DNA of 56,881 nt from Stramenopiles sp. TOSAG23-3 (Eukaryota): assembly GCA_900128585.1 (NCBI GenBank), contig LT642156.1:1-56881 (forward strand), in the 5' to 3' direction. The position numbers were made by a program, and so were the translations under genes. The notes below the pieces were generated by a model that searched no databases, was not told the DNA's origin, and saw only the letters and a list, made by a program, of their open reading frames with translations. Below, piece after piece: positions 11,960 to 52,363 of the stretch (its first letter is position 1; the number at the start of each line of letters is the position of its first letter).

Positions 11960-12445
11960 TGCCGCTGTGTACTTTTAAGACCAATCAATTGGAATCTTGA
12001 CCAGAACTTGGGGAGGATCTGCAATAGGAGGATATATTTTGTTCTTGAACGGACACCTTCTTTTTTCTTTAATTTTATTACTATAAAATAACAACAGCCA
12101 ATTTTTCTTGTTTTTTTTTTTAGTATAGTAGAAGTCATTTAAATCGGATTGTGCATAATTTTTTTTTATTATTTTTTTCTCATCGCGTCGTCGTCGTCGG
12201 CGGTGGTGTGTCTTTCAAATTTACTTTTTATATTAAAAATTTAATTTCACTCCCCTCCTCCGTCCGTCCCATACCCATTATTAAAAAAAAATACACTCTT
12301 GAGGAATTGAAAAGGTAGATACAATTTTGTGAAATCTATATCCATTGACTCGTTTTCGAAAAAGCAAGATTAGCACCATCTTCAATTAAGAGGACGACTT
12401 GGTTTGCACGCTTAACGACAATGGTTGTATGAGACGGTGGTTCAA

Positions 12446-14887
12446 ATGGGGAACAAAAGCTCACACAGTTTAGCGGAGGCTCTCGTTGCAGGAGACGAAC
12501 TGAAAGCGCTGGAAAAGCTTCGGGTGTTGGAAAGTAAGCACAGGAAAATCGTAGACCCGTCAAAATTTATTTCATCCTCTCGTTCCAGCAAATTTTTTGG
12601 CACTACATTGCTGCACTGCGCTTGTCTGAGTGGATCCCAGAAGGCAATTAGCGTTTTCGTGCAGCGTGGCGCAAACGTGTGTCTGCTGAATGATTCTGGC
12701 GAGTCCGTGCTTCACTGTCTCTGCGGCGGCGGCGCCAGTAGCAGGGCTGGAATGGAAAAAGTAAGCCATCAGCGACAACCCAGGCTAGACTCCCTATATT
12801 TCTTGCTAAAGCTTGGTTTGGGCGACGCCACAATCAATTGTATAGATCGGCAAGGTAGGACTGCACTTCACCACGCCGCAAGAAAAGGAAGAGTGGAAAT
12901 GTGTAAAGGTCTGCTTTCGGCCGGGGCAAAGCCTGGGATTTTAAATTCGATAAACCAGAGCGCAGCCGACGAAGCTCAGCTACATTCTTTCGACGAACTT
13001 GCGTCGTTGCTGGAATCTTACATAATTTTTCAATCAAAAGAAGACTGGGAAGCTTGTATAGACACTAGATTAGCGCGGCAAACGTCGACGGAGGGCGGAG
13101 AATGCCTTATCCTGCAGGACGTGCGGAGAGAAAAGGACTCAGCCCTGGTGAACATGTCGCAGATGTTAGGTATTCCCCTCTGGACCGCTGAAGCCCTGCT
13201 GAGAAAACACAAATGGAACTCACAGAGAACGGCAACGGAGTACCTTGCAAACCCGCGGAAAGCGTGCGAAAGTGCTGGCGCAATCGTTTGGCGGCACCAG
13301 TACGGTGGCGAAAATGCTGTCATAAATGCGTGCTTGACTTGTGGGGACACGGGCGGGTCTGAAGAAAGGAAAAATTTTGTTGGGGTTGTGTACGATGGCG
13401 AGGTGTACGAGGACGTGGAGTTTTTGAAAGCTATTCAGCTCTCCGCCTTGTCTGGGAGGAAAAAAATGACGATCGCGCGTGTGATCAACCAATTGCAGTC
13501 GCAGATATTTAACAATGAACAAGCTCATGGGTCCTTAACGAAGAGTCCTCAGTCCAGTAGCAATCGCGCTTTGATCGAATTGCCTGCGTGTCAGCACAAA
13601 CTCTGTAAGAACTGTTGGAGAATTTACCTTGAGATGAAAATTAAGACTGGCGACATGAAAATATCGTGCCCTTCTCAAAATTGTAACAACGTCGTTCCTA
13701 TCGACATTATAGAAACGTTGATTCCGCCCGAGTTTACAAGAAAGTATCTCTATTTTGACCTCAAAAGTTTTGTAGAAAACAACAACGTACTGGATTGGTG
13801 CCCTGCCCCTGGGTGCGATTTAGCGATGAAAATGAGCGTTGATTATTCTTCAGCGTATGGTCGAAACAGTGCTGGTAGAAAGTCATCGAACGCTAGGAGA
13901 GCGAAACGAGGCAGCAAGAAGAAACGCTACCGCTCCAAGGTGGAACTCAACGCCGGCAAACAAGCGATGTTTCAGAGTGCCACCTGCTTTAACGGCCACC
14001 AGTACTGCTTCGCATGCAAGGGTTTGCCCCATGATCCTGCTCCCTGCGAGGATATGCAGGAGTGGGCGTCCCTCACCGAGGAATACATGGATTTGGTGGG
14101 CGGGGATGATACACGCAAAGCAAGCAGCGAGAGCGATCTAGCATCTACTATTTGGCTTCGCGCAAATACGAAGGAGTGCCCCAAGTGCAATGTTATGATC
14201 CAAAAGAACGATGGGTGCAACCACATGACGTGCAGAAAATGCCGCCACGACTTTTGCTGGATCTGCATGGGGGAATGGAAAGATCACTCCAATGCAACGG
14301 GCGGTTTCTTCCGATGTAATATATATAAAGGTGCTGGGCCCAAAACGAACACGGAAGAAAAAGCCGCGGCGGATAAAAAACAGGCAGAGTCCGTTGCGTT
14401 TGTACATTTTTATACCCGCGCTAGGGCACACGAAGATTCTCTGTGCTTAGAAGCGAATTTGCTGGCTTCTGCAGAGGGCCGAATGCTTGACATTTTGGGC
14501 GGGTTCACAAAGCGGCAGCAGTCTTTGTCGGGTCAGAAGGGTGCTGTTAGTGAAAACACGGACGTAATGTTCTTGAAACATGCGTTTGAAATTCTACTCA
14601 AATCCAGGAGATTGCTTAGATCGACGTGGATTTGGGCGTATTACCACGCCCGCTTTTTGGTCGAAGAAAACCTGCACAGCGGCACGTCAGGTCGCCCAGA
14701 GGAGTCCAGGTGGCGAGGAGATTTGGTCGCTGGGCTCAACCTGTTATCTTCCTCGTGCGAGTCCATCAGTGATATGGTGGCACGTCGTAGGTTTCGGCAT
14801 TCCCGTGGATGTATAGTTGACGCAACGAATAAGTTGCAGGGGGCGGCACTTGCGTTCAAAACTATTCTGAAATCTGGGGATCATTGA
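12446..14887 (+). CDS. Ankyrin + Ariadne-type RBR E3 ubiquitin ligase (ANKIB1-like)
   Basis: MGNKSS start with myristoylation-type Gly2. Ankyrin GRTALHHAARKG. UBA-like AEALLRKHKWN. IBR WCPAPGC...CFAC..PHDPAPC. RING2 TKECPKCNVMIQKNDGCNHMTCRKCRHDFCWIC. Ariadne FVHFYTR and LLKSRRLLRSTWIWAYY. Confidence 0.92.
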   Translation: MGNKSSHSLAEALVAGDELKALEKLRVLESKHRKIVDPSKFISSSRSSKFFGTTLLHCACLSGSQKAISVFVQRGANVCLLNDSGESVLHCLCGGGASSRAGMEKVSHQRQPRLDSLYFLLKLGLGDATINCIDRQGRTALHHAARKGRVEMCKGLLSAGAKPGILNSINQSAADEAQLHSFDELASLLESYIIFQSKEDWEACIDTRLARQTSTEGGECLILQDVRREKDSALVNMSQMLGIPLWTAEALLRKHKWNSQRTATEYLANPRKACESAGAIVWRHQYGGENAVINACLTCGDTGGSEERKNFVGVVYDGEVYEDVEFLKAIQLSALSGRKKMTIARVINQLQSQIFNNEQAHGSLTKSPQSSSNRALIELPACQHKLCKNCWRIYLEMKIKTGDMKISCPSQNCNNVVPIDIIETLIPPEFTRKYLYFDLKSFVENNNVLDWCPAPGCDLAMKMSVDYSSAYGRNSAGRKSSNARRAKRGSKKKRYRSKVELNAGKQAMFQSATCFNGHQYCFACKGLPHDPAPCEDMQEWASLTEEYMDLVGGDDTRKASSESDLASTIWLRANTKECPKCNVMIQKNDGCNHMTCRKCRHDFCWICMGEWKDHSNATGGFFRCNIYKGAGPKTNTEEKAAADKKQAESVAFVHFYTRARAHEDSLCLEANLLASAEGRMLDILGGFTKRQQSLSGQKGAVSENTDVMFLKHAFEILLKSRRLLRSTWIWAYYHARFLVEENLHSGTSGRPEESRWRGDLVAGLNLLSSSCESISDMVARRRFRHSRGCIVDATNKLQGAALAFKTILKSGDH

Positions 14888-15288
14888 TTTGTTGCAAGGT
14901 CTGCGAAAGGACGAAGCAAAACTCTTTTAAAAAATTTATTATTTTGGTAACAGCCAATATTTTGTTTTTATTTTGGGTTCATACACTTTTAAAAGTAAGG
15001 GGCACGTAATTTGTTTATTTTTCTTAATAAAGCTGACACTCTCTTAAAAATTTTCCGAGTGTTTTAAGAGAGGTGAGTACACAAGGAAATGATAGTCAAG
15101 ACTGAGTGACAAGAGGGTATATTGATTCACTAATCACAACAGCAGATATCAGTTCGTACGTTAGTACATTTATTTTAATTACTTAAATAACAGCCAATTT
15201 TTCGTTTATTAAGTACACAGGTAATTTCTAAATTTGACACAATCGCCGCAACAGCTTAGAATTAGATGCTCTAATTGCCATCACACTC

Positions 15289-20628: not shown

Positions 20629-20961
20629 ATGAAGCGAGCTCAGGGGGGGGACCCGGCAGTTGTACGCTTGACAGAGGAGTTGAAAAAAAAATACAAATGC
20701 GAATTTCCAGGATGCGACGCCTTTATTGTTGCATGTGAGGAAGGGCAGTTTAACGATATTGAACACTACGTTAGACTAACGTTGCCAATGGTTATGAATT
20801 GTGGGACAATTGTCAAAAAAGTGCGGAGACGTTTATGGATAAAATCGATGAGTTGGCAATTTTCATTAAAAGAAAAGTTGAAGGTGCCGGGGAGCAAAAC
20901 TGAGAAGTATGAAATGAATCTAGACTCTAGAAGGAACATATTTTTTATATTACTACTATAA
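20629..20961 (+). pseudogene. Possible short or decayed ankyrin-like gene fragment
   Basis: EFPGCDAFIVACEEGQFNDIEHYV resembles one ankyrin repeat. The ORF runs into AT-rich sequence with no further repeats. Confidence 0.3.
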
Positions 20962-21406
20962 TACAAGGTACGTGGAACCTGGTACGGTACCAGGGACACA
21001 ACAAAATAAATAACAGCCATTATTATTAATAAGCTTTTGTTTTTGATTTTTTATAAGTTTATTCTATACTATCTCCTCTCAGATGGGTCCAAATGACAAA
21101 ATTATTATTATGTGAGTGAAAATAAATTTTATTATTTCGTATTTTTTGAACCAAACCATAGCAATAATAACAACGGAATGGGGTCGAAGAATGTTGTTGT
21201 TCTGTTTTAAGAAATATATAATACCAACGGAAATCATGAAACAAAATGTTTTGTTGGGATAATCTACGATGTAAATGTTTCTGTTTTTCCACAAGTACAA
21301 AAACTAAATGTAACTACATGCATAGATGTAACTACATGTATACGTAGAGGAAGCGGAAACTACATTTTCATTCATCATCCGGAGTTTGAGGGATCGGGAT
21401 AGAAGA

Positions 21407-24400
21407 ATGGACGATTCCCAAATTCGCTCGCTGTTGCGAGAGACGGAAAGAGACGAAATCGCGATCGACCGCATCCTTTTAGTATCGAAGCAAAAGAAAT
21501 TTTGTTTTCAAGAGATAGTGTTTGGGCAAAACGTAAAATTGGATTCCTTAGTACTTATATTGCAAGGTAGTATTAGTCTCTCTAAAGACGTTAAAGCATC
21601 GGTTGATGAATGCCTTTCGCAGACTGCCGCAGACAGACGGTCACGCGAGAGGAAGCATCGACATTCAAAAATTTACTTACACTCCATTTCCCAAGGGCAT
21701 TTTTTGGGAGCGCACGAGCTAGCCTTTTCTAAACGAACAAAAGTGTCGGCAATTTCTTCTTGCCAAACAGGGGAAACGATATGTTTGATGATCCCGCGCC
21801 AGGAAACACCACTTGTACACAAAGTCTTGTTGAAACAATTTGCCTTGTCAAGTCAAATCTCTTACAAATCATTCCAGGAATGTGCAATTAGGTTGAAACC
21901 GAGATGTTACAACGCAGGGGAAATGATAATTAGACAAGGCGACGTTGGAACGAAGTACTGCTTGATAGCTGAAGGTAGTGTGATTGTTCTTAGTACCAGC
22001 GATTGTTTGCCCCCTTTCGAAGACTGCAAAATCCTGGAAGATATGCGCCAGCACTTCAGTTTCAACGAATTGTGCAAAATTCCAAGGCTCGGAACGTTCG
22101 GAGAACATAGTTTACTGTCTTCCTTTACCGCCGACGAGCGTGACCGTAGCACGCCCAACGACAAGACATTAGAGACGACAAATGCTTGCGTATTTGCAAA
22201 CACCGACGTGGACGTACTGTACCTGGAGAAGGAGGATTTCCTTGATATTCTATCTAGAAGAACATCATTGCTGCAGTTGATATCGTCCAACGATAAGACT
22301 AGGCACGACACGCATCTTAAGAAGCGCCAGGTGAGCGACGAGGGACGCCTTGAAAGCGCGGTCTCAGAAAGACTAAAGCAGCCGACCAATCGAAAAGTGA
22401 AAGTAAGAAGAAAGAGTCAAGTGACAAAATTAAGGGATAACGTTATGAAAATAAACGAATACATTGTCAAGGAATCACTGGGCACCGGCAGTTATGGAGA
22501 GGTCTACCAAGTGGTCAAAAAAAACGAAGTGTATGCGATGAAAATAATTAAGAAAAGTATGATGCTACGAAAAGATCGATTTCGCCTCGTCCGTAATTCT
22601 AGTGGTATGATGGGAGATGTGAAGCGCGAGGTCGCCATCATGAAAACGTTAAACCATGAAAATATTATCAAGCTTTTCGAAGTAATAGACGACCCAAAAG
22701 CGAAGAACATGTATATGATATTGGAATATGCGGGCGCAGGGTCATTAGAAGCATTGTTGGGAAAGTGTGAAATGGGTCGAAGCAGAAGTATTTTCCGAGG
22801 CATTACAAAAGGGGTAGGGTACTTGCATTGCAACGGTATTGTGCATCGGGACTTAAAGCCAGAGAATATTTTGCTCAACGCTTTAGGCGTGGTGAAGATC
22901 GCAGATTTTGGCGTGTCGCAAATATTGAGAGACGGGGTTCACGTAAAAGTGAAAGGGACCCCAGCGTACATGTCGCCGGAACTGTTTTTGCGGGACGACG
23001 AGCACTCGGACCATTGGGCCGGGTCGCTTACTGGCGAAAACAACAAGCAAAGCAAGCGGGCAATGATCACAGAATCATTCGTTTCTTCCGATGTGTGGGC
23101 AATGGGCTGCATTCTTTACGCCCTTTTGGTGGGCTATCCACCGTATGGCGCAGACAAACTGGATGAAATCCAGTTCCGAGAGAAATTATTTCACGACCCC
23201 TTGAATATTCCTACCAATTTGAACGATATTCATTTGAAGGATTTGTTAGTGGGGCTGTTGCAGAAAAATTACAAACAGCGTTATTCTATGAAAGCAATAA
23301 TGACGCATGAATGGCTGACCGAAGAGGGACTCTTCCCTCTGTTTCGAAACACACGAGAACTGGACTTTTATTCCACGGTGCTCATGAATCCAAAAGAACC
23401 GACCAGAGAAGAAATTTCGTTTGCCATCACTCTAAGAATTGTTCACCACTTAAAACTTTGGAAAAAACGGGCACTGTCGAATGTAAAGGAACGAGAGGAG
23501 CAAACGGACAGGAAAGGCCCCACTTCGGTGCTTTTCAAATGTTTCCCAAAGCTTAAGTCATTGTTCAAAGGACGAAAGTACAAAATTCACCCAAAAGTGG
23601 CATTGTCCCTGGCCGAGGAGCAAGTTGATGAGAAGAAAATGCCCGACGTTCCAAAACCAGGCAACCTGACTGTTGTTGCAAGCGATGAGAACATAGAAAT
23701 ACCTAACTCGAGAGAGGCGGGCCAAAAAGAGCATACAGTCGAGAACGGTCACGTTCAAAATGATTATGCCACCACGAATTCAGATTCCGCAAGCGCTTCA
23801 GACCTTGACTCAGACTCGGACTATGGTTCGGTCGAAGATATTTTAGACGGAGATGATGCAATAGATTCCATTTTCGCTTTAAGTGACGATGCGACAGTGG
23901 GTGGTGTATCCGTGCACGAGCCATCGGAGCAGTTGAACAATACCATGCGCATGAAATCCAGCGCTTCCAGCGTTGATATACAGCGGAAAATGTCTTCCAA
24001 TCTACGACTTCTCCAGAAGAACTCGAACGTGAACTTGGGAATATCATATGGCATGCACTCGGAGAGGGGGAGGCCACTATATCAAGAAGACTGCATTGTC
24101 GCGATTCCAGATTTGCGATTGAAGAAGAATGAAAATGGCCAACACGCGTACTTTGCAGTATTTGATGGGCATGGCGGCCAGGACGTCTCCCAATTTTTAT
24201 CCAACAACTTTCACGTCCGTCTCGCTGCCATGTTTGACCCTAATGTAGACGAGGGAATTTCAGAAACCTTCGTCAGCCTTGACAAAGAAATACTGGAGAA
24301 TTTTTTGGACAAGATACCCGACAACAGCATAAATGACCTGTGCAGCCCCTCCAATAGCAGGCGGTCTATCAGCCCGTACAGCCTGCTGGACAGTTCGGGT

Positions 24401-25045
24401 TCTACGGGAACAATTTTGATGGTCGGACAAATTAGTGGGTCCAAATCCCTACTGCTGAAATTATCGTGGGTCGGCGATAGCAGAGCCGTACTGTGCAAGA
24501 ACGGGAATGCCATCGCATTGACCACCGACCACCGCGTTTCAAACGAGAGCGAACGAGAAAGAATAGAAAAACTGGAAGGTCACGATACGGCCAACGGACG
24601 CTTGGACGGATCACTGATGATTACGAGAGGATTTGGGGACCTAAGGCACAAGTTGAATTTTGTGAGCACCGTTGCCAAGGACAAGTATAATGTGGCCATG
24701 GCGACTATCCAAGAGGCAATGACGTCTCCCTCTACGACGCAAGAGAAACGAAAGGGGTTGTCAAATGCGGTTCAGCGCGATGCATTAATCTGCACCCCAT
24801 CTGTATCGAACACGCAAACCCAAGACGAGGACGAATTTATCATGCTAGCATCCGACGGCTTGTTCGACGTAATGACCAACCAAAATGCGGTGAATATCGT
24901 CCGAAGCCACCTGGAAAATAGTGGCAAACTGAACGACGCAGCGGAAGCTGTCACAAACGCAGCCGTCGAACTCGGTAGCACCGACAATGTTTCTGTTGTC
25001 ATTGTTGCATTTAACTTGTCGCTTACGCCATTGGATAATAAATAA
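21407..25045 (+). CDS. Fusion protein: two cNMP-binding-like domains + CaMKK-like kinase + PP2C phosphatase
   Basis: cNMP: YNAGEMIIRQGDVGTKYCLIAEGSV..FGEHSLL..LEKEDF. Kinase: GTGSYGEV, YAMK, HRDLKPEN, DFG, GTPAYMSPE. PP2C: YQED, VFDGHGG, GST, VGDSRAV, TRGFGD, LASDGLFD, TDNVSV. Confidence 0.92.
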   Translation: MDDSQIRSLLRETERDEIAIDRILLVSKQKKFCFQEIVFGQNVKLDSLVLILQGSISLSKDVKASVDECLSQTAADRRSRERKHRHSKIYLHSISQGHFLGAHELAFSKRTKVSAISSCQTGETICLMIPRQETPLVHKVLLKQFALSSQISYKSFQECAIRLKPRCYNAGEMIIRQGDVGTKYCLIAEGSVIVLSTSDCLPPFEDCKILEDMRQHFSFNELCKIPRLGTFGEHSLLSSFTADERDRSTPNDKTLETTNACVFANTDVDVLYLEKEDFLDILSRRTSLLQLISSNDKTRHDTHLKKRQVSDEGRLESAVSERLKQPTNRKVKVRRKSQVTKLRDNVMKINEYIVKESLGTGSYGEVYQVVKKNEVYAMKIIKKSMMLRKDRFRLVRNSSGMMGDVKREVAIMKTLNHENIIKLFEVIDDPKAKNMYMILEYAGAGSLEALLGKCEMGRSRSIFRGITKGVGYLHCNGIVHRDLKPENILLNALGVVKIADFGVSQILRDGVHVKVKGTPAYMSPELFLRDDEHSDHWAGSLTGENNKQSKRAMITESFVSSDVWAMGCILYALLVGYPPYGADKLDEIQFREKLFHDPLNIPTNLNDIHLKDLLVGLLQKNYKQRYSMKAIMTHEWLTEEGLFPLFRNTRELDFYSTVLMNPKEPTREEISFAITLRIVHHLKLWKKRALSNVKEREEQTDRKGPTSVLFKCFPKLKSLFKGRKYKIHPKVALSLAEEQVDEKKMPDVPKPGNLTVVASDENIEIPNSREAGQKEHTVENGHVQNDYATTNSDSASASDLDSDSDYGSVEDILDGDDAIDSIFALSDDATVGGVSVHEPSEQLNNTMRMKSSASSVDIQRKMSSNLRLLQKNSNVNLGISYGMHSERGRPLYQEDCIVAIPDLRLKKNENGQHAYFAVFDGHGGQDVSQFLSNNFHVRLAAMFDPNVDEGISETFVSLDKEILENFLDKIPDNSINDLCSPSNSRRSISPYSLLDSSGSTGTILMVGQISGSKSLLLKLSWVGDSRAVLCKNGNAIALTTDHRVSNESERERIEKLEGHDTANGRLDGSLMITRGFGDLRHKLNFVSTVAKDKYNVAMATIQEAMTSPSTTQEKRKGLSNAVQRDALICTPSVSNTQTQDEDEFIMLASDGLFDVMTNQNAVNIVRSHLENSGKLNDAAEAVTNAAVELGSTDNVSVVIVAFNLSLTPLDNK

Positions 25046-25403: not shown

Positions 25404-25407
<4 letters not shown>

Positions 25408-25436
<29 letters not shown>
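25408..25436. repeat. (AT)n microsatellite
   Basis: Uninterrupted atatat run. Confidence 0.95.
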
Positions 25437-28797: not shown

Positions 28798-29746
28798 GGT
28801 ATCGTTGTCTGGTGGTCAGTCACGAGTTGGTCGTGCGTATTCGTGCAAAACCGATAAAGAATCGTTCCACGAATTCAATAGTATAGGGGTACGAATAGTC
28901 TCTCTTTGTTTATCTATTTCAATGCACCAACTAACTGTAATTATTACGTATCTCATCTACTTCTTTACCAAGAGTATAAATAGTATTATAAATAATTTGT
29001 CGTCACATTATTATATACACTTGAGTTGTTTTGTTAAAATTGTAATAAAAGCACGCAGCAAAGAAGAAGAGAATAAAAACGAAGAAGGGAAGGAAGCGCA
29101 CACATACGGATGTTAATTAAATACACCAGGTATTAATACCTGGTGTATACCTGGTATTATACACAGACAGTGTTGAGGTCGAGGAGGGACGGAGGAGTCG
29201 GAGATGTTGTTGGGTTTTCAAGAAAAAGAAGATCGATTATTGAAGTACATTTTTGAGGAATTTTTAGGACTGGACCAGGTAAGCCACCTTATAATTAAGG
29301 ATATATGTATATAGGGATAATGATATGAGACCCTTTGGAATGATAAGGTGATTGTAGATGTAGGGATTTAGATGAAATCATTTAATATAAAAATAGAATT
29401 AAAAAGTGATAAAATATACACCGTTATATAAACACAGCATAAATACTATTTATATATACATATCCTTAATATTGGATTATTTTGTCTCCAGCTCACGCAC
29501 AGACAGTCCCTTGCTAGACTATGTAGTTTAATAGATTGAGTCGTCTTATTTTGTATTTTTTTTTTAGAGTCTCTCTTCTCTCTTCCATTTTTTTTTGAAT
29601 TTTTTGTGATTCCGTTGTTGTACAATTACGAGGTGTTATATCTCCCTCCTCGTTACGTAAATAATTTTAATAAAATATATAGATTATTAATGCTGTGTAA
29701 TGTATTATTATCATCAAAGAAGTGTATATACAGTTTCTTTTAATTG

Positions 29747-29846
29747 TTCTTCTTCTTCTTCTTCTTTTTCTTCTTCTTCTTCTTCTTCTTCTTTCTTCTT
29801 CTTCTTCTTCTTCTTCTTCTTCTTCTTCTTCTCTTCTTCTTCTTCT
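29747..29846. repeat. (CTT)n microsatellite
   Basis: About 100 bp of imperfect cttctt in intergenic DNA. Confidence 0.95.
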
Positions 29847-30142
29847 CTTGTTTGTTTTTTGTTGTTTTGTTGACGACGACCTGCTCTACAAAATACCGGT
29901 ACGTACCGTATTATACCAGGTATCGTACTCTACCAGTATATCTGTGTAGAAGAAGAGGATTAGTAAAAAAATTTCTTCTATTTTTCAAATTTCAATTTAC
30001 AACATAGAAAAAGGTAATATCAAAGCAGAAACAAATTATGAAAAGATCCCGATTAATCGATAGTAGAAATACTTTGAGAGAATAGTTCCGCTATCACAGT
30101 TTTTATTAATACCCTTACTTCTTCTTTTTACCCTCCGACAGA

Positions 30143-33993: not shown

Positions 33994-34063
33994 AAAAATC
34001 ACAAACAAACGCTGTGCTCTTTGTGTACTTCATACTCGTACGAAGGTGTTACTCTAGTAATTT

Positions 34064-34132
34064 AAAACAAGAAAATTGGCTGTTATTTAAGTAATTTTAA
34101 AAACAAGAAAATTGGCTGTTATTTAAGTAATT
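34064..34132 (-). repeat. Two tandem copies (period 36) of the dispersed 33-bp element
   Basis: aaaacaagaaaattggctgttatttaagtaatt at 34064-34096 and 34100-34132; exact reverse complement of 48310-48342 and 52331-52363. Confidence 0.95.
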
Positions 34133-34324
34133 AATTAAAAAGGGAGAATGCGCCAATCTTTTATTCAAAAATCTTTAAGATGTTATTTTTTACTTCTTGA
34201 AAAAACTTTGTTTATCTGTAATGATCTTACGCGATTGAATTAAAAAAGCTCTCTCCCCTCTCCGTTTCTCTTTCTGTATTTGTTTCTATTTTTACACACT
34301 TTTCGCGCGTGCAGTTCTCTCTTC

Positions 34325-40378: not shown

Positions 40379-41726
40379 GCTCCTTCTGTACTCCCGCGTG
40401 CACAAAACTAGGCTTGTTTCACAAAATCTTGACTTCCACACCCGTTGACGCTGTTACGTTACCAGTATATTTCCCTGCCCACCAAGATTTCATACACCAA
40501 TGCTATAAAGAAAACAACGAATGCATTAAAAATTCTTATAAGATATTATTTTAAAAGATAAATCAATATATATGTGTGTTGTAAATTATTTAGGAACATA
40601 TATTATTATAATAATAATAATAAAAATACTAAAAAAATTTCATCATCGTACTACCTCGTATATCATCATCAAAGCAATATAGACTAATAATTTTTTTATA
40701 GTTGTTTATGTGATTATAAAAAATAATAATAATAATAAAAAAATAACAAAAAAAATGTAAATAAATAAAATGCGATTATTGAGTATTTATTATTACATTA
40801 TATTTTATTTATTTTGTTTTTGAGTTTTGAGACTCATAGACTAATAAATTGTATACGGTAGAGACTACTCGTGCTGTATTAGTGGAATTAGTCGTTCTAT
40901 TATTCCAATTATATCTTAATTATATAACTAACATAATATTTTACCTACGGTAAGAGTATGAGTGCCAATGAGTACGATAATAATAGACTAATAATAGTAC
41001 GGGAAAAAAAAATCCACAATAAATAATAATAATCAATAACTAGACGACTACTGTAGCTTAAAGAATCTAAGAAAGAACACAACAACAACACACAAAAAAA
41101 GAAGAAAAAAAAGAAAAAAACAGCAATTTAGAGGAGTACAATAATAGCTCTCGTAATTTTACTTCTCTGTATATCGTATTCGTTTACAGCTACGTACATT
41201 ACGAGGAAATAGGACTAGTTATTAGTTTTTATTTTTAAGCCTATTTATATATATTTTTGATCTACTCGTACTGTCCTCATTCCACTCATATTATTATTAT
41301 ATGTGTGACATGGCAATATGGCAATTGCATCGTTTTTTTGATGTAAAACGACGTTTTGACAGTGTTGATGTGTTGAGCTCCCTCGCTCCCTCCCTCCAAG
41401 ATGTAATTTGATAGGAGTTCATATATAATATACTAAATATATACTAAACAATATACCAGGAAATGTGGCCAATATCGAATATGTAATTTCTGAGCTACTA
41501 CCGGTACCTGGTATTAATACCATAGTAGATACACAGCAGGGTGAGGCAGGCAAGAAAATTAATTCCAAGAAAAAAAAATGGTTTGTTTATTATCTACTAC
41601 CTTGGTATTATATACTTAGGTATCATCTGATAATTTTTATGCATGATTATTATTTGTGGTTCTTTCTCTGTGTGACATATTGATACTCTTGCACAAATTT
41701 AATACCTTTTTTTAATTGAGAACGGT

Positions 41727-43202: not shown

Positions 43203-43930
43203 TCTTTCTTCACCAGACGGAACACGTAGGTAGTATTTTCTAAAAACAGGCGTATGAAAATCCCACTGGCACCAAAAGCACCTTAGTAACTCTAATCAAT
43301 GATTCCTCTCTATTATTTGTTCAAAAATGGATCTATCGTTTCTCTTGTACAATCATTTCTTCTTTCCTTCATTCTTTTATTTTCTTCTTCGGTTGGGAAG
43401 AAAGGTGCATGTGTTTGTTGATTAGCGCGTCGATCTTCGTCGATCTTCTCGTGTCCAATAATAATAATAATAAAAACAAAAAAAAAAAATAATAAAAAAT
43501 ATTATTTAACTATTTAATAGTAGTTCATTATTATATTACCTAAAACTATTACCAGTTAAATAATATACACAGGTCAAGAGGAGGTATTTATTATTTAGTC
43601 GTCTATTATTATAGCCTATTAATTAATAAAAAATAATACAACAGTACTGACTTCAGGAAAAAATCAATACCAGGTACCAAAAAAAATTTAAAGAAGGAGA
43701 GGTTGTGGTGAGTTTTTATTGATGATGTGTTGATGAAAGAAAAATAATATAAAAAATTTTGAAGAAAATTATTCTTTTTGTTCTTCGATTTTTATTCCTT
43801 TATTACACACTTCGTATGCTATGGATATGGATGGGCACAGGATTCTGCCTGGTAGAGGATACCGGACTCGGATATTGTTAAACCCTATATACAACACTTC
43901 TAAAACTGAAAAATTTAGTACAGGTACCAA

Positions 43931-46900
43931 CTACAATGCATTGTTGACGGCATTTGTTTTCTTTCCAGGTGCTTCAATAATCCCCTTTTCTACCTTATCT
44001 TTTACTTCCTTTCGCTTTTTCTCATTTTCTTCAATGTGTTCTTCGACTGTTATATTTTTTAGTATCTGGTCCAGCTTGTCTTGGTCACCCTTTTCAACAG
44101 CTTCCTGTAACTTCCCACGAAGAACGACATTTTCCACTTTTGCAAAATTATCCATCAGCCCGCAATTTTTGCAACAATATGGAAAATCCTCGTGGTACAT
44201 GAGGTAGGCTGACATTCCTTTCAATGCTTCTTTCCTTTCTTGTATCTTTTCTTCCACTTCTCGCACGTTTTTGTTTGGATCCTCGTCACGATCTTCTATG
44301 TAATAGCGAGCGTTCGAGTCGTATGCCCAGACAGTAATAAATTGACGATTGGCTGCCTTACTGCTTTTCCCGCAACGGTCAAGCGCGTTGGTTCCGCGAA
44401 AGTTAATCTGACCTAGAAACTCATCTTCGCCGACTAGATCGTCATCGTAGACTTCAAACCTTACCCAAGACGACATGAAATCATTCCCCATGTCATACTC
44501 AAAGACTTCTTCCCAAACAGGATTGAGACAATTATCAATCACTCGCGTTCTCCCGATCTCCTCGTTATTGACCAGGATGACCGCATACGGATCAGATAAC
44601 CCGACCAAATCTGCATCCGCCAGCCCTTTTGCCAATATCACATTTATTAACAGTTTAGGAGCGCTATCGTCCGCTGCTTCGACCTGAAACTCATCCGTTG
44701 ACTCTGCGCGGCTGTGTTCTTCATCATACGCGCCCAAAAATTCGTTGTAAAACTTGTCCAGCAGGACATCCTCCTCCGGCCCCGGTTCCTCTGGAGGTGG
44801 GGGTAGAGGCAAACCTTCGGCAATCATGCGCGCCTCTTCTTCGTCTTTCATAATTATGTCGCCATGAAAACGAGAAACAGAATCTCGAACACAAGCTAAC
44901 ATAGGGCCAATTTTAGATCGTCGCCAATCATCGCGGGCAATCTCCAAACGATGGAGTCTTTCTACTCCAAAGCATTCAAAAACTCCCCAGTTGGCCGTTT
45001 TTTCTTCAAAATGGCGCAAGGACTCGAGCTCTAGGTTGAAGGGGTAAGCATCCTGAACGACATCTTTTTCCAATTGAATCAAATCTCTGCGCAGCTGCGC
45101 GCGCTTTCGGCGTTCCTCCATTGGAAACTTTTGCTTGGATGTCTTGTTCAATTTTTCAATCCCCTCTTCCGTTTCACTTGTGTCTGTCCAAGCAACTGTA
45201 AATGTCACTGAATCGACGACAATTGCCACTTCCCGGTCAGCCTGTACTTTAGAGTACATTTTCTCAACGGCAGGAAGGGCGTTCCAGTCCACTTTTGAAA
45301 AATACTTGTTTCTAAGCTTTTGTTCTCGTTCTTGCTCTTCCTCGACCAACTCCGAAATATCCAAACTTAAGTCTGGGATGTCTTTTTCTTCAATGGGGAT
45401 ATCTTCCAAAGGGGTTTTATTCTCGTTCAACAGCACGACCGCCTCTACAATGTACTGCAGAGCGGCAATAACTTCGTGGTCCGCTTTCTCTCGAAATCGG
45501 GCAACACTGTCACACATTATATCGACGAGGGTTACAATCTGGGGAGGAACGTGTTCCAATGGGTCGTACACCGTTCCCGGGTCCTCCTTATGGTTCAGCA
45601 GCAACAAGTTATCGTCGCCTTCCTTTAACGCGATTCCGTAATAATGCAACAGCGGTTCTGCCTTTGCCGTACTCAACGATGCATCATCGTCCCTGCCTAC
45701 AGCCCCGACTAAACAGGCAAGGACACTTCGGACCAACTCATGGTCACTCCTGTCTTCATCTCCTTCCGATATCGTAATCTGAGTAGTGTCTCGCATTTTT
45801 TTGAGTATGAACGGCTCCTCAGTTTCGTAGACCCACGGGTTATTAGCTATGCTCAATTTTTCCAAACCCCTGTTTCGGCGCATTGCCTGACCAAGTTCTT
45901 TCACGCCTTTACTTGTGATCTCATTGCTATCCAGATCAAGGTATTTTAAAGTTTTATTGGAAGCAAATGCTTTGGATATCTGGATGACGCCCTTGTCTTT
46001 TAATTTATTGCTGTGTAAAATTAGCTTTCCTAAGGCCGTGTTCTCCTTTAAGGCCTTCATGATGGCCGTACCCGCCTTAGGTGGAATCTGACAGTTGGAA
46101 ATATCCAACTCGTACAGTCGAGTATTTATTTTGACCGAACGTAGAAGCACTTGAGTTCCTGCACTTTCCAACAGATTGTAAGAGAGGTCTAAGAACACCA
46201 ATGTATCATTGAATTCGAGGGCTTCCTGAAACACTAATTCTATTCCCGCGGCATCAAAGCAAAGCTCCTCCTCATGTTCCTTTCCTCTGCAGTACAGCCC
46301 GCGCAATGTTTGATTGTCTTGTAGCGCCCAACCAAACCGACGAAGGAAATCCTCCTTCTTGTCGTCAACCTCCCCCTTACGGTTCATGATGGTCTTCTTC
46401 CATTTTGATATGTCAATAATCTGCTTTGTTCTCTGCATCATCAGGCGGTACAAATGAATTGCTTTTTTGCCAAATCGCCAAAAATTCAACATATTGTCAA
46501 TCACCGAATATCGCTTACTCCTGGGCAGCTTGTCAACCTTTACCTCAACATTCAAGTCATCGCCGTACGAGGTGACACTTGAGGCGGGAATTGAGGATAG
46601 GCCGTCCGTTATGGACGATTCCGTCGGAACGTAACGGTCCTCAGCAATGGCTATATATTTGTCATACGCCTTTCGCACATGGTCCCAAGAAAAGCTATCG
46701 GATAGACTACCGGTTGGTGTAGGCGCTTCATCGTCCAAATTATCTACTTCCATTGCTTCGCCAGTGTGCGCAGACGATTGGTCGTCCGAATCGTCTTCTC
46801 CAATTGGTTCTATTTTCGGCAGGACAGTGTCCAGTACATCGGCGACGACCGACGTTGCGAGAAGTGTATTGGCCGATTTTATATTTACCGCTTTCGGCAC

Positions 46901-47743
46901 GTTCCAGACGACAAGTTGGGGGTTTAGCCTGTGAACGTAATAAAACATGCCCGTATTTTCATCCCAACACTCCTTCCACTCCACAGCAACACTGGCGCTT
47001 GATGGGAGCTCTTCCGGCCGATCATAAACAATCGCTATTGTCCCTCGGAGGACGAAATAAATTTCGTCGTCACCACTTTCTTCTTCTTCCGACGTACCGC
47101 GTTGATTAATTTTCACCCACTTTGATGCTCTGGTCTCTTTCTGTTCTTCTGCAGCTACGCTAATCAATTCTTCGTCTGACAAGTCAACGGAAAAATCTTC
47201 TATTGCCGATATTAACGCGTCGCAAACTCGTTGACTTGCAAGAGTTCTTGCTCTGCGTTTGGCCACAATTTTGAGAAAGTCCGCATCTATATCGCTAGGT
47301 ATTCCCCATATCGCCTTACTTGACACTCTGTTTACATAAAAATATCTATAGTTGTCATCGTGGTAATATTCCTCCCATTCTACTAAAACATCTTCTTCGC
47401 TAGGAATATCTTTGGGGCGATCATAAACCGACTGTTCCGTCTCTTTATTGAAATAAAAAATTACCCCTGCTTCAGGGTCGTAATTCTTAGACCAAGGCGA
47501 ACCCCTTATTCTGCCCCGATGCAGTTTCTCCCGCCGAGCGCGCCGCTGTTGCGCTCGGTATTCAAAGTTCCCACCCGCACCATCATTCTCTAAATCAATA
47601 GCATCTTCTGAACCTTCAAACAAAAACAATTCTCTTCTTTTACCCCGCTCATGTTTTTTCGATCGCACCCAAGGCCATTCGGACTGTCTAGCTTTTTTTC
47701 GATTTTCGCGCTTTACATATTTTATCTCTGGTGATCTTGGCAT
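43931..47743 (-). CDS. WW-domain + RNI-like LRR + C2-domain protein
   Basis: Four WW-like units (e.g. WSKNYDPEAGVIFYFNKETEQSVYDRP). LRRs (NDTLVFLDLSYN, NKTLKYLDLDSNEITSKG). C2 (AKGLADADLVGLSDPY..TRVIDNCLNPVWEE..VYDDDLVGEDEFLG). Confidence 0.88.
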   Translation of the reverse strand: MPRSPEIKYVKRENRKKARQSEWPWVRSKKHERGKRRELFLFEGSEDAIDLENDGAGGNFEYRAQQRRARREKLHRGRIRGSPWSKNYDPEAGVIFYFNKETEQSVYDRPKDIPSEEDVLVEWEEYYHDDNYRYFYVNRVSSKAIWGIPSDIDADFLKIVAKRRARTLASQRVCDALISAIEDFSVDLSDEELISVAAEEQKETRASKWVKINQRGTSEEEESGDDEIYFVLRGTIAIVYDRPEELPSSASVAVEWKECWDENTGMFYYVHRLNPQLVVWNVPKAVNIKSANTLLATSVVADVLDTVLPKIEPIGEDDSDDQSSAHTGEAMEVDNLDDEAPTPTGSLSDSFSWDHVRKAYDKYIAIAEDRYVPTESSITDGLSSIPASSVTSYGDDLNVEVKVDKLPRSKRYSVIDNMLNFWRFGKKAIHLYRLMMQRTKQIIDISKWKKTIMNRKGEVDDKKEDFLRRFGWALQDNQTLRGLYCRGKEHEEELCFDAAGIELVFQEALEFNDTLVFLDLSYNLLESAGTQVLLRSVKINTRLYELDISNCQIPPKAGTAIMKALKENTALGKLILHSNKLKDKGVIQISKAFASNKTLKYLDLDSNEITSKGVKELGQAMRRNRGLEKLSIANNPWVYETEEPFILKKMRDTTQITISEGDEDRSDHELVRSVLACLVGAVGRDDDASLSTAKAEPLLHYYGIALKEGDDNLLLLNHKEDPGTVYDPLEHVPPQIVTLVDIMCDSVARFREKADHEVIAALQYIVEAVVLLNENKTPLEDIPIEEKDIPDLSLDISELVEEEQEREQKLRNKYFSKVDWNALPAVEKMYSKVQADREVAIVVDSVTFTVAWTDTSETEEGIEKLNKTSKQKFPMEERRKRAQLRRDLIQLEKDVVQDAYPFNLELESLRHFEEKTANWGVFECFGVERLHRLEIARDDWRRSKIGPMLACVRDSVSRFHGDIIMKDEEEARMIAEGLPLPPPPEEPGPEEDVLLDKFYNEFLGAYDEEHSRAESTDEFQVEAADDSAPKLLINVILAKGLADADLVGLSDPYAVILVNNEEIGRTRVIDNCLNPVWEEVFEYDMGNDFMSSWVRFEVYDDDLVGEDEFLGQINFRGTNALDRCGKSSKAANRQFITVWAYDSNARYYIEDRDEDPNKNVREVEEKIQERKEALKGMSAYLMYHEDFPYCCKNCGLMDNFAKVENVVLRGKLQEAVEKGDQDKLDQILKNITVEEHIEENEKKRKEVKDKVEKGIIEAPGKKTNAVNNAL

Positions 47744-48297
47744 TGTTTCATTTGATTCTTTATAATCTTTCTATTTTAACAGACCAATCTGAAACACAAA
47801 TTTGAAAAAAGTATGGGTGAAATCTAAATTATTGCATTGTGTACTACGAGGACATTCCTCAAACATTCCTCAAACATTCCTATGTAGGCAATCATATTAC
47901 TTTCTTTCTAACGATGATTTGGGGCATCATGTACAATATATATATCTATAATATAATAATATAATAATAATATACCAGTAATAATAATATTACGTAGTGC
48001 GTAGTGCCCAAGTTGGTTGTGGGGAAGAGTGAGAAGAGAGAGAAGCAACAAACAACAACCGATTAAAATTCGATTTTGCTGTGATGCTATCACCTGCCAG
48101 CGGTATTATATTATTATTACTATTCTACTATTAAATTGAAATACAATATCATCTTCTATTATTATTTTACATTTGTCGTTATAAAAATAATAACAAAATA
48201 GCACTGATAAAAATAATATAATAACATCTTGAATTTTTAGTCTCTCTCTCTATTTTTTTTTCGCTAAAAAAATAGACAAGAAAAGAGGAGTGAGTGT

Positions 48298-48343
48298 GAA
48301 GCTAAATTTAATTACTTAAATAACAGCCAATTTTCTTGTTTTT
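48298..48343 (+). repeat. Longest copy of the dispersed element GAAGCTAAATTTAATTACTTAAATAACAGCCAATTTTCTTGTTTT
   Basis: Matches 52165-52209 apart from a 2-nt insertion, and contains the exact 33-mer. Confidence 0.92.
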
Positions 48344-48663
48344 ATTATTATAATAATATTATTGTTCCTCTCGACGACGATCATCATATATTATTATATT
48401 CGCGGTAAAAAAAAATGAAGAAGCGAGGCTGAAAGATACTACTCCAACGGCATCATTAATTGGTTGATGTCCATATAATGTAATGAATAATATGGTGTGG
48501 CGGTTTATTAGATTATTATTATTCTTTCCGGGAGATTCATTTCATAATCCAATGCAATTGAAATTGCCCGTAAATTCTACATTTATTGTATGAATGAGTT
48601 GCAAGTTGTGAAAAAAATAATTTGATTCACAATAACAATCGAGCGGTGGTACTTTAAACCAAG

Positions 48664-50955
48664 ATGAGCAGGATTCTCGTTATTCTGACATTGGTTTTGC
48701 ATTCGAGTCTTATATCATGCAATGATCAAGTTACGTACGAAACCGCAAAAGAGATGTTGAAATCCTGTAGCTGTTTTGCGGAATTGCTAACGTACGCAAA
48801 GGTAGATTCTCCAAAAGGGCTAGATGTTCACTCACTGCATCGCCTTGTAGACGACTTGATCGCCGAAAAAGAGATCGTTTTGCACAGAGAGAAGGCCATA
48901 GAAATGAAAAACAAACAAACAGTTGGTTTCGAATGGGGCGCATCGGAATTTGCAGCCGAGCCACCCCCAGAAGTGTCTGTTGCGGATATGAATTTAGATG
49001 ACACACGAAAGTTTGTGCGAGATTACGATCTAAATGTACGTGTTAGTTTGGAAAACGGTCAATCCAAAGAGGACATTATTGCAAGCATCGAGAGGGCAGC
49101 AAAGCGAGCGAGACACGAAAGGTTGGAATCGCACCTTGGCTTTCTGCAGGGAGAAGACGGCGTTGTTGAAGTTAAATATATCGTCATTGGGGCTGGTCCT
49201 AGTGGTCTGCAACAATCGTATTTTTTGGACCGGAATAATCGGGACTATATCGTGTTTGAAAAAAACAGCGCACCCGGTACATTTTTTGATAACTTCCCCA
49301 GGTCTCGACGAATGACATCTTTGAATCGGCGTGTAGTAGGTGTTGGGAACGCGCACAAAGAGGCTGCCTGGAGATTTGACGCAAATAGCCTGTTGTCGCA
49401 TTTGCCGGACTTAAAATTTTCTCAATATACAAATTCAATGTATCCTCATGCAGACGTTTACCGAACGTATTTAGAAGATTATGCATCCCAGTTGGGACTT
49501 AACATAAAGTACAACTCAAAAGTGGTCAAAATCAAACGGCAACGAAGGATATGGAGGGGGGACTCATCGAAACGACAGCGTAACGTGTTTTTGGTCCAGC
49601 TTGCGAATGGAAAACGGTACCGTTGCAGAGTGCTTCTTGTTGCAAGTGGAATCACATCGACACATGACATCCCCGGCGTAGACTATACCGACAATTATGA
49701 GACGTCCTCGTTAGACCCAAGAAATTATTACAGGCGCAAAATGCTGTTTGTAGGAAATGGCGACAACGCAATGGAAATCGCACATTATGCGGGGCAGTAC
49801 GCCGCCGAGACAACATATATTAGCAGTGAGGGGTTAGGTTTACTTTCTGGGGGGACGGGCTCGTACTCATACGCTGGTTTCCGAGCTCACGATATGGTGA
49901 ATGAGCACAGCCTCACAAGTGCACAAACGGTAGAGGGTATGCTGAAAGGGGTCTTAAACCAAGGAGAACCCGCAGCTTCGAAATACACTTTGCAGTCTGC
50001 CCGGGAGGACGATGGACTAAATGTCTCCTTAAAGGCCAACCGACCAAAAGACCCTTCCATTTTTCTTGGAAAATACGACGATGTAATTTTGACCACAGGG
50101 TTTCGCTTGGACGCAAGTATGTTCAGCACAAATCGTACCAAACCGGCTTTGACTATGGACGATCGGTACCCAAAATTGAAGTACAATTTTGCATCAGCAA
50201 ACGTTAGTCACATGTATTTTACTGGTTCTCTAATCTCCGGTTATTTCTTTCAAAATAATGGCAAGAGGGCCGCTGGCATGCAAGTGGGCGACTGGCGATA
50301 CATGTCCAGGGCACTGCATAACTACTTAGAGGTTCGGTATGAGCAGCGAACGTGGCCCGACATGAGAAAAATACCTTCTCACGCCGCCGGAATTACAGAT
50401 CGAGTCAAGCATCGAATAAGTCAAAGCGCAGGAATTTTCCGAGTGCACGGAAAGTTTGGTTTGGGCGATTTGATCACGTTCCCACTGAGCGGTTACTTTG
50501 CAAACAATATTCGGCGTGCCAACACATTGTACTTGCATGAAGTCCCGGGTTTACCCGATTCAGCCACGGACATATTTCTTCGTTTAAAAAAATTTCACAA
50601 CAAAGACATGCTACTAGTACGGCACTGTCTGACATTGGCGTTTACAGGTGTACATTGTAGCAGGAAGAAGAGCAATGCGTCCAGCCCTAATTTTACAGGG
50701 TTTCATCCTGTCGTCGCCTTGTATGCATTGCCACTTGACAACAGGACAAACCTTATGAAACTTGGGAAATCAACCTTACTACGCACTTATCACTTTGAAG
50801 CAGATCCTGCAATGGAATGGAAAGATGATAATATTCATGCCGACCCTTTTCAACATTGGATCGAAAATGTTGTTTTGAGGATTATATCGGCTGGGCATTT
50901 ACTGCCTCCTCAGCACGCTAGCCCGAGACTAGTACAGAATGAATGTGCCGTGTAA
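48664..50955 (+). CDS. FAD-dependent oxidoreductase, FOXRED2-like
   Basis: Signal peptide, YIVIGAGPSGLQ..YFL, PGTFFDNFPRSRRMTSLNR, RFDANSLLS, YPHAD...YLEDYA, VGNGDNAMEIA, TGF. Confidence 0.85.
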   Translation: MSRILVILTLVLHSSLISCNDQVTYETAKEMLKSCSCFAELLTYAKVDSPKGLDVHSLHRLVDDLIAEKEIVLHREKAIEMKNKQTVGFEWGASEFAAEPPPEVSVADMNLDDTRKFVRDYDLNVRVSLENGQSKEDIIASIERAAKRARHERLESHLGFLQGEDGVVEVKYIVIGAGPSGLQQSYFLDRNNRDYIVFEKNSAPGTFFDNFPRSRRMTSLNRRVVGVGNAHKEAAWRFDANSLLSHLPDLKFSQYTNSMYPHADVYRTYLEDYASQLGLNIKYNSKVVKIKRQRRIWRGDSSKRQRNVFLVQLANGKRYRCRVLLVASGITSTHDIPGVDYTDNYETSSLDPRNYYRRKMLFVGNGDNAMEIAHYAGQYAAETTYISSEGLGLLSGGTGSYSYAGFRAHDMVNEHSLTSAQTVEGMLKGVLNQGEPAASKYTLQSAREDDGLNVSLKANRPKDPSIFLGKYDDVILTTGFRLDASMFSTNRTKPALTMDDRYPKLKYNFASANVSHMYFTGSLISGYFFQNNGKRAAGMQVGDWRYMSRALHNYLEVRYEQRTWPDMRKIPSHAAGITDRVKHRISQSAGIFRVHGKFGLGDLITFPLSGYFANNIRRANTLYLHEVPGLPDSATDIFLRLKKFHNKDMLLVRHCLTLAFTGVHCSRKKSNASSPNFTGFHPVVALYALPLDNRTNLMKLGKSTLLRTYHFEADPAMEWKDDNIHADPFQHWIENVVLRIISAGHLLPPQHASPRLVQNECAV

Positions 50956-51179
50956 ACAGTAAAGAATTCAAAAAGAAGGAAAAGTGCTACACGTGTTGAA
51001 ACTTTAGTGGACAATCAAATGAAAAGGTTTAGAAATAACAATCAATTTTTTGTTTTTAGAATTTTAAGTTGACAATCAATCCCTTAGTGGAGGGTGTACA
51101 AATAGCGTAGTTTAAGATTAACGTACCTCCATTTTGAACGCCAGCAATATTACTCATAGAAAACTGCATTTTCGACTTT

Positions 51180-51878
51180 CTACAACTCGTCTTTGTTGTT
51201 CTTCTTTTTCTTCTTCTTTTTCTTCTTCTTCTTCTTCTTCTTCTTCTTCTTCTTTCTCTTCCGTTTTTTCTTTTGGGGGCTAGAGACTTCGGCATCTTTG
51301 CTTTCCATATCATAGCGGGTCTCATCCTCCGCCCCAGTGCACACTTGCATATCTATGCACAACTCTTTTGAAAAGTATCTGCGTTGCTTTTCGGGTTGGT
51401 CTTTCGCGTGGCGATAGTGCCCATAAACAATTAGCTCCTTATCATTAGTCAAATCCTGGCACAATCTTGCAAATCGTTCCGGGTTCTTCCCGCCCCCTTG
51501 CGTCAGGCCAGCGGTGTTCATCGCATCTAAACCCTCTCCGCTGAGTCGGATGTTAGGCCAGGCCTCGTTGCCTTTTAAACCATAATTGTCGAAAGCACGC
51601 TGTGAACACGTCTCTTCATAAACTTCATAGACTTTGCTCTCACTTGCCTCCCGTTTATTATGATCGGTCACTTTCTCAAATTTATTATAAAGATGGTAGC
51701 CGATGGCACGGCAGGCATCGCACTTCATGTATTTTGGAAAATACACCGACATCCGTTCCTCCTCGGACAACTGCGGGGGTGTGAAAGATATCGCATTCTC
51801 CGACGCTTGCACTACTGCATTGGCAGTAAGTGTGAGAATCAAAAGGGAAACCCCAAGATTAGTCCGTTGCAAAATCAT
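51180..51878 (-). CDS. ER-resident saposin-fold protein, MZB1/Canopy-like, with poly-Lys tract and KDEL
   Basis: Signal peptide, PQLSEEE...PKYMKCDACRAIGY, YGLK...RLSGEGL, GGGKNPERF..LC, ELC...C, terminal KDEL. Confidence 0.82.
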   Translation of the reverse strand: MILQRTNLGVSLLILTLTANAVVQASENAISFTPPQLSEEERMSVYFPKYMKCDACRAIGYHLYNKFEKVTDHNKREASESKVYEVYEETCSQRAFDNYGLKGNEAWPNIRLSGEGLDAMNTAGLTQGGGKNPERFARLCQDLTNDKELIVYGHYRHAKDQPEKQRRYFSKELCIDMQVCTGAEDETRYDMESKDAEVSSPQKKKRKRKKKKKKKKKKKKKKKKKKNNKDEL

Positions 51879-52164
51879 CGTCTAGCACTTTTGGTTTAAA
51901 ATAAGGTGTCTACTGGTACATTTCGTGGTATAAAATTTCGTTTTGTTTCGTTTTCATTTCAGAAAGATATCCCTCAAACGAGAAGAGACTAATTTAAATT
52001 GATTAATATATATACTAAGAAGTTTGTGTGGGGTGGGGTGGTGGTGGAGAAAGATGATGATATGATATGATTATTTTGTACTACAACAAAACACACACCA
52101 CATCATCATATTTTATGGCAAAAAACAAATAATAAAAACATTCAAGTTAGGATTAGGGTATGAG

Positions 52165-52363
52165 GAAGCTAAATTTAATTACTTATAAATAACAGCCAAT
52201 TTTCTTGTTGTTAGTTTTTATAAAAAGTATTTAGTAAGTGAATGTCTATATTTTTTTATTACTTTATCTTAAACTTTTATACAGTTCGCATTACATTAAT
52301 TTTAATTACATCATTAGTTTCTTTAATTTTAATTACTTAAATAACAGCCAATTTTCTTGTTTT
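52165..52363 (+). repeat. Two copies of the dispersed element (52165-52209 and 52328-52363)
   Basis: The second copy is an exact 33-mer overlapping the TAA stop (52362-52364) of the minus-strand GPCR. Confidence 0.92.

Follow-up and report, generated by a model that had tools for sequence, protein, structure and literature searches.

The dispersed 33-nt motif of a TOSAG23-3 contig as the very probable 3′ terminus of an RLE-type non-LTR retrotransposon family

The window and its copies of the motif

The stretch analysed here (the window) is one entire contig of 56,881 nt (LT642156.1, assembly GCA_900128585.1) from Stramenopiles sp. TOSAG23-3, whose 28.4-Mb genome is assembled in 7,088 contigs. 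It carries long, apparently intron-poor open reading frames (ORFs), and its encoded G6PD has as closest named relative a protein labelled MAST-4 (71% identity); from this similarity a MAST-4-like stramenopile of the sea is assumed as host. Between these ORFs lie copies of a 33-nt motif (Table 1) that is very probably the 3′ terminus of a family of retrotransposons that lack long terminal repeats (non-LTR retrotransposons), of the restriction-like endonuclease (RLE) type, CRE/R2-like, most copies of which are short stubs. A first-pass annotation of the window had proposed for the motif a tiny mobile element or its terminus, a 3′-processing element or a recombination site; the first of these stood, as a retrotransposon 3′ end, and the other two did not.

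The 33-mer was found exactly where it had been reported, at 34064-34096 and 34100-34132 on the minus strand and at 48310-48342 and 52331-52363 on the plus strand, and 100 shuffles of the window held no match to it even with three mismatches allowed. The near-exact and degenerate copies were likewise present, at about 12092, 14948, 15188, 21011 and 52190. All lie between ORFs, the 52331-52363 copy sharing two bases with a stop codon, and the three sense-strand cases behind stops (ends 15289, 33993 and 52362) were as described. The actual lengths of the window copies are 270, 140, 72, 47 and about 36-45 bp; those at 11856-12123, 15075-15212, 52142-52213 and 52282-52363 match other loci upstream of the motif and are thus longer than first noted. 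In what follows, L-numbers denote individual loci analysed, C-numbers contigs of the TOSAG23-3 genome and X15 one sequencing run.

The longest copy occupies the stretch from about 110 to about 380 nt past the stop of ORF 10709-11746, in a tandem gap, and its upstream part and that of L250 bear the same tail piece as the other types of 3′ untranslated region (3′ UTR), while the 15075-15212 copy spans the stop codon of the parent element's ORF together with its 3′ UTR. In the head-to-tail pair at 34061-34134 the same 8-nt word follows both T-tails, which fits one stub having inserted at the end of the other. The T-tail of the stub at 52318-52363 runs into the stop codon of a GPCR-like ORF on the minus strand, 52362-55388 (T-T-A junction, 52362-52364); since this stop coincides with the stub junction, the insertion either used or created it. 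The 21007 copy, a core only, is the least certain member: it matches a variant end seen 18 times across all loci analysed and lies 46 nt behind a 110-codon ORF of uncertain status (20629-20961).

Contigs of four sequencing runs were compared with positions 33000-52900, and one X15 contig bridges the 48298 copy, with 41 gap letters in total against the 47 bp of the copy. A contig of X15 also holds additional DNA at two places: about 2.1 kb at 44358, within ORF 43931-47743 on the minus strand, and about 56 bases at 43925-43928, right behind the stop of that ORF; both are possibly insertions absent from the window.

Table 1. Copies of the motif and other features of the window.
Feature	Coordinates	Strand	Remarks
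5′-truncated copy, ~270 bp	11856..12123	+	third 3′-UTR type (C); includes N gap; 88% over 271 nt to L250, 90% over 112 nt to L168
Degenerate stub	14932..14974	+	convergent gap 14887/15289; 82% over 45 nt to L139 3′ end
5′-truncated copy, ~140 bp, type B	15075..15212	+	85% over 145 nt to L095
Core only, uncertain member	21007..21024	+	matches variant end
Stub	34061..34096	-	convergent gap 33993/34325; paired with 34097..34134
Stub, upstream member of pair	34097..34134	-	convergent gap 33993/34325
47-bp stub, type A	48298..48344	+	100% over 47 nt to L095; sole copy found in a divergent gap (47743/48664)
Weak decayed stub, uncertain	51030..51067	+	convergent gap 50955/51180; 83-92% over 26-35 nt, E about 3e-4 to 1e-3; absent from first-pass annotation
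72-bp copy, type A	52142..52213	+	93% over 72 nt to L095
Type B piece (52282-52309), then stub (52318-52363)	52282..52363	+	sequence matches to other loci
Other dispersed repeat, ~1 kb	4250..5230 (core 4341-4861)		in convergent gap 4156/5322; further copies, with 80-83% identity, in L013, L210, L215 and L225/L252; duplicated internally (4885-4987 / 5097-5199); no connection with the motif's parent seen
ORF, VPS9 plus RCC1 repeats	1253..4156	+	
ORF, kinase plus ankyrin repeats	5322..7517	-	
ORF, ankyrin plus RBR-type IBR ligase	12446..14887	+	
ORF, cyclic-nucleotide-binding region, protein kinase and PP2C phosphatase fused	21407..25045	+	
Long CTT repeat	29735..29871		
Long CTT repeat	51186..51275		in end of ORF 51180-51878 (-); encodes lysine run >20 residues

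Across the 28.4-Mb genome, exact copies of a 25-mer of the motif number 514 and those of its 14-mer core 2,058, the core thus occurring about once per 14 kb, with the strands evenly split and no match to reversed-pattern controls. The stretch 33300-35000 was present in 18 of the 24 listed runs, from nine studies (two runs being possibly its source), and the motif in at least 126 stretches of other assemblies; it occurred in no viral contig, and in the prokaryote genome collection once as an exact 25-mer, in the 4.1-kb contig of bacterial bin L345, which we guess to be eukaryote contamination (records very close to the TOSAG23-3 genome may be left out of these three counts). An adapter, amplification or assembly artefact, an origin for which the fragmented assembly and the many copies at contig ends or gaps might speak, has a practically negligible probability, being refuted by the runs and other assemblies that hold the sequence, its near-absence from viral and prokaryote records and the absence of the motif from ORFs (none of 155 copies).

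A fixed 3′ end, duplications and empty sites

In the first 30 genomic loci, the sequence past the terminal T-run differs every time, while the sequence before the motif is held in common over variable lengths and falls into few types. Among 144 exact copies of a 29-mer, 15 with N letters or at a contig edge were dropped; of the 129 usable copies, 80 match the parent element over fewer than 60 nt, 35 over 60-150 nt and 14 over 150-500 nt, lengths that were measured against natural long copies and may be underestimates for subtypes without a reference. The same length shape was seen in 195 copies of the TOSAG23-3 genome. The T-run after the last G is 3-6 nt long in 102/129 copies, and three 3′-UTR types (A, B and C) share the same terminal 25-30 bases, which were probably kept across types by protein recognition of the RNA end. 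Copies also occur in inverted and tandem clusters.

The word after the T-run recurs just before the 5′ junction, as a target-site duplication. Such duplications reach at least 8 nt in 37 of the 129 copies, against a mean of 3.3 and a maximum of 7 in 100 permutations, and at least 12 nt in 21 (mean 0.15, maximum 2); this set counts one site twice (L239/L300). At loci of the TOSAG23-3 genome they numbered 14/110 against 2.6 expected, about three of the 14 being possibly tandem copies or microhomology. They mostly start with a few T and then A and measure 9-14 nt, including 1-2 nt common with the element. Two filled/empty pairs were found, L221 against C6009 (46 extra bases, comprising a stub and an 8-nt duplication) and L228 against C6008 (338 extra bases with a 12-13-nt duplication). 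These two other-assembly loci overlap motif-unbiased contigs at a copy, and both were polymorphic; in further overlapping pairs (L331/L025, L225/L252, L239/L300 and L259/L309) the copy is present in both members. Both sites are occupied in the other assemblies and unoccupied in the TOSAG23-3 genome. The family has been mobile within the species in recent times. The flanks and the duplicated words all differ between copies, so that no single multicopy target exists, and Rfam and tRNA scans of the window gave no match.

A second constant end with its own T-run was observed in L188:1230-1290, L217, L168, L185 and at about 50 places in the loci analysed, where it occupies the same gaps as the motif. 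In L188 and L168 it is joined to reverse transcriptase (RT) fragments of a sister family, and the motif insertion of L221 sits directly behind an end of this second type.

The parent element and its likely mode of insertion

The parent was traced by walking upstream through overlapping natural copies. Read from the 3′ end inwards, the motif is preceded by about 75-150 nt of 3′ UTR, then by an ORF tail rich in Ser and Asp, a knuckle/nuclease-like region and, beyond a linker, the RT, whose frames lie in L190 and L191. The whole stretch from knuckle to motif stands on a single 1.6-kb piece of this genome (L134) and also in L294, there with one open frame of 472 codons. The chain that leads to the RT consists of L190-L191 (93% over 715 nt), L191-L193 (88% over 121 nt), L193-L175 (99% over 77 nt), L175-L177 (92% over 440 nt), L177-L184 (89% over 360 nt), L184-L145 (89% over 376 nt) and L145-L134 (90% over 294 nt). 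The target-site duplications, the empty orthologous sites and, in overlapping copies, the longer parent element that the first-pass annotation had set out to be looked for were found, and an RT linked to the motif, a fixed 3′ end with variable 5′ truncation, and duplications of variable length with empty alleles together characterise a long interspersed nuclear element (LINE).

A search with L190 returned 27 long homologous proteins, 24 of them with RVT_1. The sister family is 44-47% identical to the motif's parent; its RT in L176 matches Pfam RVT_1 at E 6e-7, and its protein P0261 holds the RT and the same C-terminal region in one chain of 1,087 residues. With a profile of the L190 RT and its relatives, covering RT and C-terminus, the best solved structures were R2 proteins (E 6.5e-50), followed by L1 ORF2 (6e-24). 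The consensus of the 27 homologues shows a knuckle, R-H-N, E, R-x-x-D, D and K-x-x-x-Y, in the order of SLACS, CRE and MoTeR, for which a knuckle followed by the RLE residues is described in PMC12857005. The knuckle and H-N region aligned to the RLE of the relatives at E 2.7e-5, against E of at least 0.42 for 20 shuffled controls. After the RT, the parent thus has the CCHC knuckle and the following R-H-D/N signature of RLE-type LINEs with P in place of R (P-H-N), and its first Cys spacer exceeds that of the pattern in PMC12857005. Candidates for the PD-(D/E)xK residues (E, Q-A/P-D, D-V and K-x-x-Y) are conserved in order, with weak profile support. No named CRE sequence was returned by the searches; the RT motifs of the parent may resemble those of CRE.

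Several observations weigh against the assignment to an RLE-type retrotransposon. The nuclease core aligns weakly (E 0.005, probability 7%) and with long inserts; the L190 frame alone and the C-terminal profile match no solved structure, and Pfam gave no match above cut-off in the C-terminal frames. A dedicated search recovered no full-length copy and no N-terminal region, the part that in the CRE clade bears zinc fingers, and the link from RT to tail consists of overlapping fragments, the shortest overlap being 77 nt. An exact duplication of at least 8 nt was lacking in 92/129 copies, which are likely older, nested or deleted, and the empty-site pairs number two, neither for a copy of the window. 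Because its own frames match no structure and the knuckle region alone aligns clearly, the parent is likely, and not proven, to be of RLE type; the C-terminal domain may be an active RLE.

A miniature DNA transposon, a rolling-circle (Helitron-like) element or a site-specific recombination site might also produce inverted and tandem clusters, and one fixed and one ragged end is a combination that rolling-circle elements can show as well. However, the parent encodes an RT and not a transposase or Rep/helicase, no such ORF ending in the motif was seen in the upstream walk, the duplications vary at about 8-14 nt, and there is neither a terminal inverted repeat nor a 3′ hairpin. From the RT to the 3′ end, the recovered part of the element, no LTR, integrase or tyrosine recombinase was seen. 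Such DNA-based origins are therefore rated as highly improbable.

The retrotransposon reading most likely implies target-primed reverse transcription by an RLE-type protein with early dropout. The element RNA would end in a short U-run instead of poly(A); the protein would nick AT-rich DNA, the U-tail would pair with the nicked A-rich strand, and reverse transcription would begin at the fixed 3′ end and mostly halt after 30-150 bases, giving stubs. A second nick about 8-14 bp away would yield the target-site duplication, and the cDNA would often be joined via 1-2 bases of microhomology.

A sister-family stretch after the nuclease-like region (L157:2-1582, minus; L139:6677-7981, plus; L168:1155-2018, plus) is Ulp1-like, matching Pfam Peptidase_C48 at E 0.09 only, and presumably has an OTU-like motif. 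PMC4640811 places the Ulp1-like domain of NeSL and Utopia at the N-terminus. A genome search with Pfam RVT_1 missed the motif's family and gave eight matches resembling LTR or tyrosine-recombinase elements, L119-L126 (C2763, C2845, C4346, C4033, C3226, C4197, C3182 and C2669); three have long LTR-element-like frames and five have overlapping frames, with one tyrosine-recombinase match.

Position behind genes, related elements and significance

The position of the copies relative to genes was determined in a set of 257 kb, picked independently of the motif apart from the window itself (the window and 50 kb from each of four other contigs, with ORFs of at least 120 codons). Of 17 cores, none fell in the 181 kb of ORFs, eight fell in 11.8 kb of convergent gaps, seven in 28.4 kb of tandem gaps, one in 31.3 kb of divergent gaps and one outside the called gaps; minus the window, four were convergent, four tandem and none divergent. 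Among 155 motif-chosen copies, in a set of 3-kb loci that favours short convergent gaps, 64 were convergent, 14 tandem (all nearer a stop), none divergent, none in ORFs and 77 not assignable to a gap type. The nearest ORF end was a stop in 107, a start in two and none in 46, a one-sided count that escapes part of the short-gap bias, and the median distance to the nearest stop was 101 nt. The bias towards stop codons noted in the window is therefore real and genome-wide. The mRNA-sense orientation also proposed was not upheld: 48 of the 78 resolved copies lie in sense and 30 in antisense to the nearest gene (p = 0.054), the tandem gaps, where strand is unambiguous, give 6 against 8, and as the 14948 and 12092 copies lie behind plus-strand stops in opposite orientation, the strand rule fails even inside the window.

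The proximity to stops, the slight strand lean and the terminal bases common to the three 3′-UTR types would suit a host 3′-UTR, polyadenylation or termination signal, carried by the retrotransposon or merely serving it as a target. This is nevertheless a very unlikely source of the motif, which was found in only 12/96 gaps of the 257-kb set, shows no strand bias in tandem gaps, lies inside the duplication brackets and is missing from the empty alleles. Folding of six copies/strands gave no structure beyond shuffles in 6/6 tests (best z -1.45), and the Rfam scan suggested for the motif was without a match; neither a fixed strand, nor presence at most genes, nor a stable fold, as would mark a 3′-processing RNA element, was found. 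Secondary host use of some stubs may occur. A CCAAT-box (NF-Y) promoter element or replication origin, brought to mind by the CCAAT within the motif, its spacing of about one core per 14 kb and the one window copy in a divergent gap, is scarcely credible: the copies noted upstream of plus-strand genes belong to a family depleted where promoters lie, with one copy in 31.3 kb of divergent against eight in 11.8 kb of convergent gaps, 0/78 resolved copies in divergent gaps and 14/14 tandem-gap copies nearer the stop. The insertions are polymorphic, and the empty sites refute this origin of the motif.

For the retrotransposon, the niche 3′ of genes could arise in two ways. AT-rich candidate sites number 14.7 per kb in divergent and 15.7 per kb in convergent gaps and are sevenfold rarer in ORFs, so that sequence explains part of the absence from ORFs and not that from divergent gaps. 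We rate targeting at slightly better than even as the cause, and purging of other insertions, for instance in promoters, at slightly worse than even; the near-absence of 30-50-bp AT-rich stubs from kilobase-long AT-rich divergent gaps gives the slight lean to targeting. It is possible, if tentative, that chromatin, R-loops or a 3′-end factor, and not DNA sequence, actively guide the element to zones of RNA polymerase II termination. Self-targeting to earlier copies was considered and rejected: of the first 100 cores listed, 45 lie within 300 nt of another, but if copies are restricted to convergent gaps a rough Poisson calculation predicts as much as 40%, so that clustering is no evidence for it. 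By raw count, a T-G-T-T-T word occurs in only 17/110 of the 5′ flanks.

Among known systems, EhLINE1/EhSINE1 of Entamoeba histolytica resemble the family by description. In PMC1635306, they are RLE-type non-LTR elements without a single fixed target, with target-site duplications, inserted in intergenic DNA close to and not inside genes, and their T-rich 3′ tail is suggested to base-pair with the bottom strand, which is A-rich. The motif family consists mostly of stubs below 60 nt and not of SINE-sized copies; its duplications are about 8-14 nt against a 22-bp example there, and its niche is specifically the 3′ side of genes. CRE1/2, SLACS, CZAR, Cnl1, MoTeR and FoTeR share one ORF with RT, then knuckle and RLE, 5′-truncated copies that outnumber full ones and, in trypanosomatid CRE, duplications of variable size (PMC12278014, PMC12857005 and PMC7367193). 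Spliced-leader genes or telomere repeats are the insertion sites of these elements, and a poly(A) end is general in trypanosomatid CRE, whereas the targets of the motif family have only T/A richness in common, its copies end in a short T-run, and long inserts and a tail rich in Ser and Asp distinguish its RLE region. Neither the poly(A) tail nor the single multicopy target site that marks trypanosomatid CRE or R2 was found. The R2 proteins (R2Tg 9dou/9nl3 and R2Bm 8gh6) were the top solved structures for the profile of RT and relatives, a match driven by those relatives, as the family's own frames match none; R2 is specific for 28S rDNA, while the motif family has no fixed target, and RLE elements are mostly target-specific, with HERO as chief exception (PMC4640811).

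The SIDERs of Leishmania, which are known for a 3′-UTR location and regulatory use, offer a further likeness, in that they are numerous short remnants of retroposons which lie behind the genes of a compact protist genome. They belong to the INGI clade with an apurinic/apyrimidinic endonuclease (APE) and are extinct and several hundred bases long, whereas the motif family is of RLE type, polymorphic and made of stubs. SIDERs are named in PMC12278014. No description of the motif's element family was found in the main texts of the mainly open-access literature, Repbase and Dfam lying outside this search.

Together, the motif is accounted for without a new regulatory system: it belongs to a new family within a well-known kind of element and is no gene-control signal. 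In this little-known lineage of marine stramenopiles, it would represent a divergent, recently mobile LINE of RLE type whose copies are extremely truncated and sharply favour positions behind genes. Its polymorphic stubs can serve as population markers and probably cause breaks in the assembly of this genome. If targeting underlies the niche, a new integration niche would be added to those known. Ty1, Ty3 and TRE elements target tRNA genes, and steering to termination zones, if true, would provide a counterpart, an RLE retrotransposon that has exchanged its specificity for sequence against a safe harbour defined by position, at the ends of genes; in a wild population of the sea, its polymorphic stubs would then be remodelling 3′ UTRs by the thousand.

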